Assembly: GCF_058153355.1 (NCBI RefSeq) | Contig: NZ_CM177019.1 | Reading direction: 5' to 3' (one strand) | Length of the DNA stretch: 64,000 nt | In this document: piece after piece, positions 60,625 to 61,019 of the stretch | How positions within the stretch are numbered: position 1 is the stretch's first letter | Layout: each line of letters starts with the position of its first letter | Program-made: the position numbers and the translations under genes | Notes under the pieces: generated by a model | The model's input: the letters and a program-made list of their open reading frames with translations, nothing else | Database searches by the model: none | Told to the model about the DNA's origin: nothing

Positions 60625-61019
60625 AATCTATTCGCCTTATATATGTCTGGAGGTTTTGAGTATGATGATTAATTATTATCGCCAGAACGAAATGTGCACG
60701 AAAAATTGCTATAAGAATTGTGTCACTTTTATCATTGTGATATGACCAGTTCGTCATTAATCTCATGATCGTTTAAATACCACCGCCAAATAGCGCAACG
60801 AACTTTGCTGGATTCAGTTTATCTGCGTAAATCCGCTCGCAGTAAACCTTTCAGACGCTGCGTGATGTTATCAGTGGTTCTTTAAGCGTTTTGCTGGTGT
60901 ACTCACTACAAACGAATTGCGAATCGAATCAATGTGAAACGGAAAGGTACAATCTCCCTTTTTTTAGTGTTAACATCGTTCAACCGGGTGGAAGGTGAGA
61001 GGTTAATGTCTTTCATTTG

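Follow-up and report, generated by a model that had tools for sequence, protein, structure and literature searches.

The spacer between the divergent genes arpB/espL1 and thrS of Escherichia coli contains a short open reading frame (ORF) preceded by a strong Shine–Dalgarno (SD) sequence, and the question raised by this locus is whether the ORF encodes a small protein, serves as a leader peptide or is a coincidence. All positions given here refer to the window, i.e. the whole stretch of 64,000 nucleotides of DNA that was analysed. The ORF starts with ATGATG at 60662-60667 and runs through 27 sense codons (MMINYYRQNEMCTKNCYKNCVTFIIVI) to a TGA stop at 60743-60745. The first-pass annotation had described 27 codons with GGAGG at an 8-nt spacing, and this was found to be exact. 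Alignment to K-12 placed the counterpart of the ORF at complement(1802973..1803056) of NC_000913.3. The features of the region were taken from the sequence, from a program-made ORF list, from annotated E. coli genomes and from a consensus scan as follows.

58456..58563, minus strand: yniD, encoding a known small protein of 35 aa; it served as positive control in the selection test (ORF list and annotated genomes).

58726..60624, minus strand: arpB/espL1, an intact gene for a type III effector of the ShET2/EspL family (632 aa; ORF list and annotated E. coli genomes).

60599..60627, plus strand: weak sigma-70-like pair CTGATA-17-CATAAT with 9/12 matches (consensus scan).

60605..60661, plus strand: in-frame upstream extension from an ATG at 60605, which gives a 46-aa ORF in the window strain (program-made ORF list).

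60649..60653, plus strand: Shine–Dalgarno-like GGAGG, separated from the ATG by the 8-nt spacer TTTTGAGT.

60662..60745, plus strand: the 27-codon ORF (ATGATG...ATATGA), disrupted in only one of the 100 E. coli sequences aligned (sequence, ORF list and K-12 alignment).

61145..63073, plus strand: thrS (threonine-tRNA ligase), followed by infC and rpmI (ORF list and annotated genomes).

The ORF had also been said to lie divergent from arpB in an AT-rich spacer of 0.5 kb. This description held: the arpB-thrS spacer measures 520 bp at 37.7% GC (39% for arpB plus spacer and 49.5% for the whole window), and both neighbours were confirmed against annotated E. coli genomes. Only 37 nt separate the arpB/espL1 start codon from the ORF, which sits on the opposite strand in the upstream (promoter/5' UTR) region of the effector gene. 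The 46-aa extension overlaps the region of the arpB start codon in antisense and is closed by a TGA in K-12-type strains, which read TTTTGACTC where the window reads TTTTCACTC. The sigma-70-like pair might in principle give rise to a transcript that includes the ORF; the consensus scan found three promoter-like sites, against 2.8 from shuffled sequences. The effector gene, intact in the window, is a pseudogene (frameshift or internal stop) in K-12, BL21/BL21-AI, CFT073, 1162C, M8 and PCN061, and its codons 1-100 show a pN/pS of 0.88 across E. coli.

The number of such ORFs expected by chance was estimated from the window itself and from a null model of 100 first-order Markov sequences (64 kb) of the same composition. 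Both strands of the window together hold 45 occurrences of GGAGG and nine GGAGG-N4-10-ATG pairs; four of the nine are starts of real genes (275-322 codons) and the other five open ORFs of 1, 3, 13, 14 and 27 codons. On average the Markov sequences contained 9.7 such pairs, 3.5 of them opening ORFs of 27 codons or more; at least one such ORF was present in 98% of the sequences. An SD sequence, an ATG and 27 codons are therefore not beyond chance expectation, and the option of a coincidence gains support from the roughly 3.5 comparable ORFs that random sequence yields per 64 kb.

Conservation of the region was examined in complete E. coli genomes. A 601-bp query covering the neighbourhood was matched in 5,425 of the 5,426 genomes at 95-99.7% identity (the closest to the window being 2013C-4282, at 99.7% across the query), and a 141-bp query covering the ORF segment was matched in 5,304; about 120 of the 5,426 match the former and not the latter. 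For the analysis of variation, 100 sequences were aligned: 88 metagenome contigs, picked by an anchor in the thrS operator and hence outside the ORF, 11 genome loci and the window itself. These E. coli sequences include 27 haplotypes of 60640-60760. Within the ORF there are 12 distinct nonsynonymous changes (M2I by two different mutations, N4D, R7C, C12R, K14R, K18N, N19D, C20Y, T22A, T22I and V26A) and three synonymous changes (at N9, C16 and V21). The resulting pN/pS of 0.74, from 68.3 nonsynonymous and 12.7 synonymous sites and 15 substitutions counted without a phylogeny, is the highest among the six frames of the same DNA, the other five giving 0.33-0.52; as controls from the same loci, yniD gave 0.20, thrS 0.07 and 0.02, and codons 1-100 of arpB 0.88. 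In a binomial estimate, 12 nonsynonymous changes out of 15 fit neutrality (84% expected) and are unlikely under constraint of the yniD level (52% expected, p ~0.03). No purifying selection on the reading frame was thus seen in the 100 E. coli sequences (N = 12, S = 3).

Nucleotide diversity in the ORF (0.025) is the same as in arpB (0.024-0.026) and exceeds that of yniD (0.0046) fivefold and that of the thrS leader, which is nearly invariant in E. coli (0.003), about eightfold; at 0.025-0.028 it is somewhat below that of the next 135 nt (0.036-0.052). Fifteen peptide variants occur among 99 sequences. The C-x3-C-x3-C pattern of the peptide is not maintained, two of its three cysteines being polymorphic (Cys12 is replaced by Arg in 31% and Cys20 by Tyr in 5%). 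The SD sequence reads GGAGA in 30 of the 100 sequences (CFT073-type) and GGAAG in one, a GGAG core or better being kept in 99. The first ATG is present in all of the aligned sequences and the second is lost in two. The frame itself is open in 99 of the 100, the exception (L020) carrying a 16-nt deletion that shifts the frame, but this openness is uninformative because only 4.3 of the 81 sites (5%) can give a stop by substitution, so that the probability of seeing no stop among 15 changes is ~0.44. In strain VL7S7 (L009) an IS2 lies within the ORF, and the match resumes at query base 52 (~60681). The ORF very probably evolves like the surrounding, often pseudogenised island.

The spacer was also noted to be a recurrent target of insertions. 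Apart from the IS2 in VL7S7, the match of FG92-1 (H30) breaks at ~60767, and in a published avibactam-resistance isolate the thrS leader is interrupted at K-12 1802720 by 1,336 bp of inserted DNA (PMC12323667).

Beyond E. coli, the ORF segment was not found in relatives without arpB among the anchored contigs sampled, a set that excludes named Escherichia species. In a contig whose ThrRS is 99.5% identical and which retains only fragments of EspL1 (L080), homology to the window starts at ~60862. In contigs from other genera (ThrRS 84-95% identical) it starts at ~60925, which is the thrS promoter block CAATGTGAAAC...CCCTTTTTTTAGTGTTAACAT, and in L069 (ThrRS 98%, YniD 100%) and L128 yniD adjoins thrS and arpB is absent. 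These homology boundaries, together with the adjacency of yniD and thrS, indicate that the ORF is part of the DNA that came into the yniD-thrS junction along with arpB. Distant blastn against 72,556 plasmids detected no paralogous copy, be it upstream of ShET2/OspD genes or elsewhere; its only hits were chromosomes filed as plasmids.

The first-pass annotation had offered a small protein as one option, to be checked by comparing synonymous and nonsynonymous substitutions; with near-neutral change and a segment that is absent outside arpB-bearing E. coli, this option fared badly. A genuine young microprotein restricted to E. coli, expressed from a short transcript that points away from espL1 and with a function perhaps linked to the effector locus, is quite unlikely. 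It would accord with the strong SD sequence at ideal spacing, the double ATG, the open frame in 99 of 100 sequences, a weak promoter-like site in the right place (60599-60627) and the sporadic automatic annotation of extended versions, but the frame is the least constrained of the six, the peptide varies and loses its cysteines as described above, the SD sequence is weakened in 30% of the sequences, natural strains carry the ORF broken by a deletion or by IS2, the anatomy is expected by chance and the ORF is missing wherever arpB is missing. It is quite unlikely, too, that the ORF is a very young de novo microprotein gene specific to E. coli, which came in with the espL1 island or originated there, would be translated from a short divergent transcript and is too recent or too weakly selected for constraint to be visible; if true, it would be a case study of gene birth beside a type III effector gene.

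Among the complete-genome matches listed, no RefSeq feature lies under the ORF, and the peptide matched no Pfam or NCBIfam family at E<=1. About 15 billion predicted proteins include no exact copy of the 27-aa peptide shared by the window and K-12; the B2-type 27-mer occurs once, in JGI/IMG. A few E. coli genomes in GenBank carry automatic 'hypothetical protein' calls for N-terminally extended forms of 46-50 aa (e.g. ESE38878.1, GDE85963.1 and ASO88247.1), and one 32-aa member (P0021) runs five residues beyond the usual stop position. A full-text search found the peptide in none of the papers covered. Neither the peptide nor its coordinates were found in the accessible portions of the Stringer 2021 and Cappable-seq supplements, in the supplements of the Fesenko/Koonin 'Cryptic bacterial microproteome' and smORFer studies, or in the supplement of Huecker 2017 on EHEC, a study that took only ORFs of at least 30 aa.

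The relation of the ORF to the thrS mRNA was derived from published transcript maps. In the SMRT-Cappable-seq data of Yan et al. (2018; PMC6131387), thrS-infC-rpmI-rplT units start at 1802732 and operon variants at 1802805, on the reverse strand of K-12. Transferred to the window by the K-12 alignment, these starts are as follows.

60910, plus strand: second, upstream thrS transcription start (K-12 1802805; mapped from PMC6131387), 165 nt downstream of the ORF stop.

60983..61144, plus strand: main thrS transcription start (K-12 1802732; mapped from PMC6131387) with the leader of 162 nt to the thrS ATG, which holds the operator hairpin GTGATCTTTCGTGTGGGTCAC.

The ORF stop (60745) therefore precedes both thrS starts by 165-238 nt, and the SMRT-Cappable-seq supplement (PMC6131387) contains no transcript unit starting at 18029xx-18031xx. 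Shimada et al. (2014; PMC3946193) reported an RpoD-holoenzyme SELEX site in the thrS-arpB spacer; its predicted thrS-side hexamers (TCGTCA-17-TAAAAT) map just after the ORF stop and match no SMRT-Cappable-seq start listed, and its arpB-side hexamers (ATGATG-16-TATAAC) were not located in K-12. A consensus scan of 60300-61300 returned no terminator-like site, and 60634-60760 folds no better than shuffled sequences (z = 0.02). Of the 27 codons, two specify Thr; they are not adjacent, and Thr22 is replaced by Ala or Ile in some strains. SMRT-Cappable-seq selects long transcripts, and the maps thus place the ORF outside the thrS mRNAs while leaving room for a short independent transcript. The start at K-12 1802732 corresponds to the classical thrS promoter.

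Because both mapped thrS starts (K-12 1802732 and 1802805) lie downstream of it, the ORF is not a thrS leader peptide. The suggestion of a leader peptide made in the first-pass annotation is refuted by these starts, by the lack of a terminator or stable structure in the regions scanned and by the presence of only two Thr codons. That the ORF might regulate thrS as a leader peptide or upstream ORF, through attenuation or translational coupling, is extremely improbable even though it lies upstream of thrS on the same strand and the neighbouring pheST operon does have such a leader, pheM. What the candidate shares with pheM and with other leaders of aminoacyl-tRNA-synthetase and amino-acid operons is its small size and its place ahead of a synthetase gene in the same orientation; unlike leaders of the pheM/thrL type, the candidate stands outside the mRNA, has no run of regulatory codons and is followed by no attenuator. 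Relatives keep the thrS promoter and operator without the ORF segment. The control of thrS is, moreover, established as binding of ThrRS to its tRNA-like operator and not as attenuation, and thrS requires no extra leader peptide.

A role independent of the peptide was also considered, in which the very transcription or translation of the frame would influence the divergent promoter of espL1, for instance because H-NS silencing is disturbed or the promoter occluded. The place of the ORF, opposite in strand to espL1, 37 nt away from its start codon and in DNA of 38% GC, would suit such a role, with which near-neutral amino-acid change is compatible. It is nevertheless very unlikely: the idea is purely inferential, SMRT-Cappable-seq gives no evidence for transcription of the ORF strand upstream of 60910, the SD sequence varies between strains and espL1 is a pseudogene in many of the strains that keep the ORF. 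Neither this reading nor that of a young microprotein is favoured by the present evidence.

A type I toxin or small hydrophobic membrane peptide was rejected as a candidate, as the peptide has no hydrophobic span of ~18 residues; by inspection, its N-terminal 20 residues are polar (NYYRQNEMCTKNCYKNC) and the only largely hydrophobic run is formed by the last seven (VTFIIVI). No structured antisense RNA for a type I toxin was found either (no Rfam match in 58000-64000 at E<=1 and no excess structure), and the same Rfam and folding results led to rejection of an RNA element.

The closest parallel is offered by the many novel short E. coli ORFs that Stringer et al. (bioRxiv 10.1101/2021.07.02.450978) detected by Ribo-RET and describe as 'pervasive translation'. 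Like the candidate, these are short intergenic ATG ORFs with an SD sequence that are lineage-restricted and whose peptides are not under purifying selection; their translation was seen by Ribo-RET, whereas the candidate is a frame predicted from the sequence. YniD, a validated 35-aa small membrane protein encoded 2 kb away, is comparable in size and locus and was likewise missed for years by classical annotation. Unlike the candidate, it is conserved outside the species (L128 and L069, at 86-100% identity), shows the low pN/pS and diversity given above (0.20 and 0.0046) and is covered by Pfam and NCBIfam models.

The ORF is most likely ordinary and non-functional: very probably, a chance ORF came to stand behind a chance GGAGG in acquired AT-rich DNA upstream of espL1, with no selected coding function. 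On this explanation, AT-rich DNA would have been acquired horizontally into the yniD-thrS junction of E. coli along with arpB/espL1, and the open frame and GGAGG would have arisen fortuitously on the strand opposite espL1, immediately upstream of that gene, the ORF being neither held by selection as a protein nor included in the thrS mRNA. Should transcription of the strand occur, for instance from a divergent or spurious start in this AT-rich DNA, the strong SD sequence would probably yield some translation, which we infer would be pervasive and non-functional. Chance and neutral drift would suffice for a textbook-looking arrangement of SD sequence, ATG and 27 codons in acquired AT-rich DNA. 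The result matters little, although as a negative it is useful in that the ORF should stay off the list of E. coli small proteins absent evidence from ribosome profiling or tagging.

Several minor observations were made at the 5' end of arpB. Its first 33 nt (60592..60624, in the region of a plus-strand ORF at 60568..60672) are bounded by ATGAGT...ACTCAT, and the antisense strand too reads ATGAGT (MSSDNDIV...). Some database proteins of 50 aa (P0013 and P0016) start with MSSDNDIV and run on into the peptide of the 27-codon ORF; such fusions may be explained by small indels just upstream of the SD sequence, e.g. the 2-nt deletion of BL21 at 60644-45. An EspL1 homologue of 78% identity (P0007, on the SRR27475715 contig L012) was rejected as a divergent orthologue, its systematic E-to-K, D-to-N and G-to-S/K changes fitting G-to-A conversion (bisulfite-like or by damage) of E. 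coli reads.

Further observations concern the upstream region of thrS. The stretch of ~100 nt that precedes the main thrS start (60881..60982) has a diversity of 0.0065 in E. coli, compared with 0.04-0.05 just upstream, and this near-invariant block holds the second thrS start (~60910) as well as the promoter motif common to other genera. Two unrelated-looking types of thrS leader were seen upstream of the invariant operator hairpin, one in L069, L128, L037, L046, L050 and L021 and the other in the window (60925..61094). L069 combines E. coli-like ThrRS (98%) and YniD (100%) with the other leader type and has no arpB; when arpB was inserted, the distal part of the thrS leader and the promoter may thus have been replaced as well. 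In three further contigs (L032, L076 and L116) ThrRS is 100% identical to that of the window and the region upstream of thrS is ~80% identical from ~60925 and unrelated further upstream, and they possibly represent E. coli lineages that have had their arpB side replaced.
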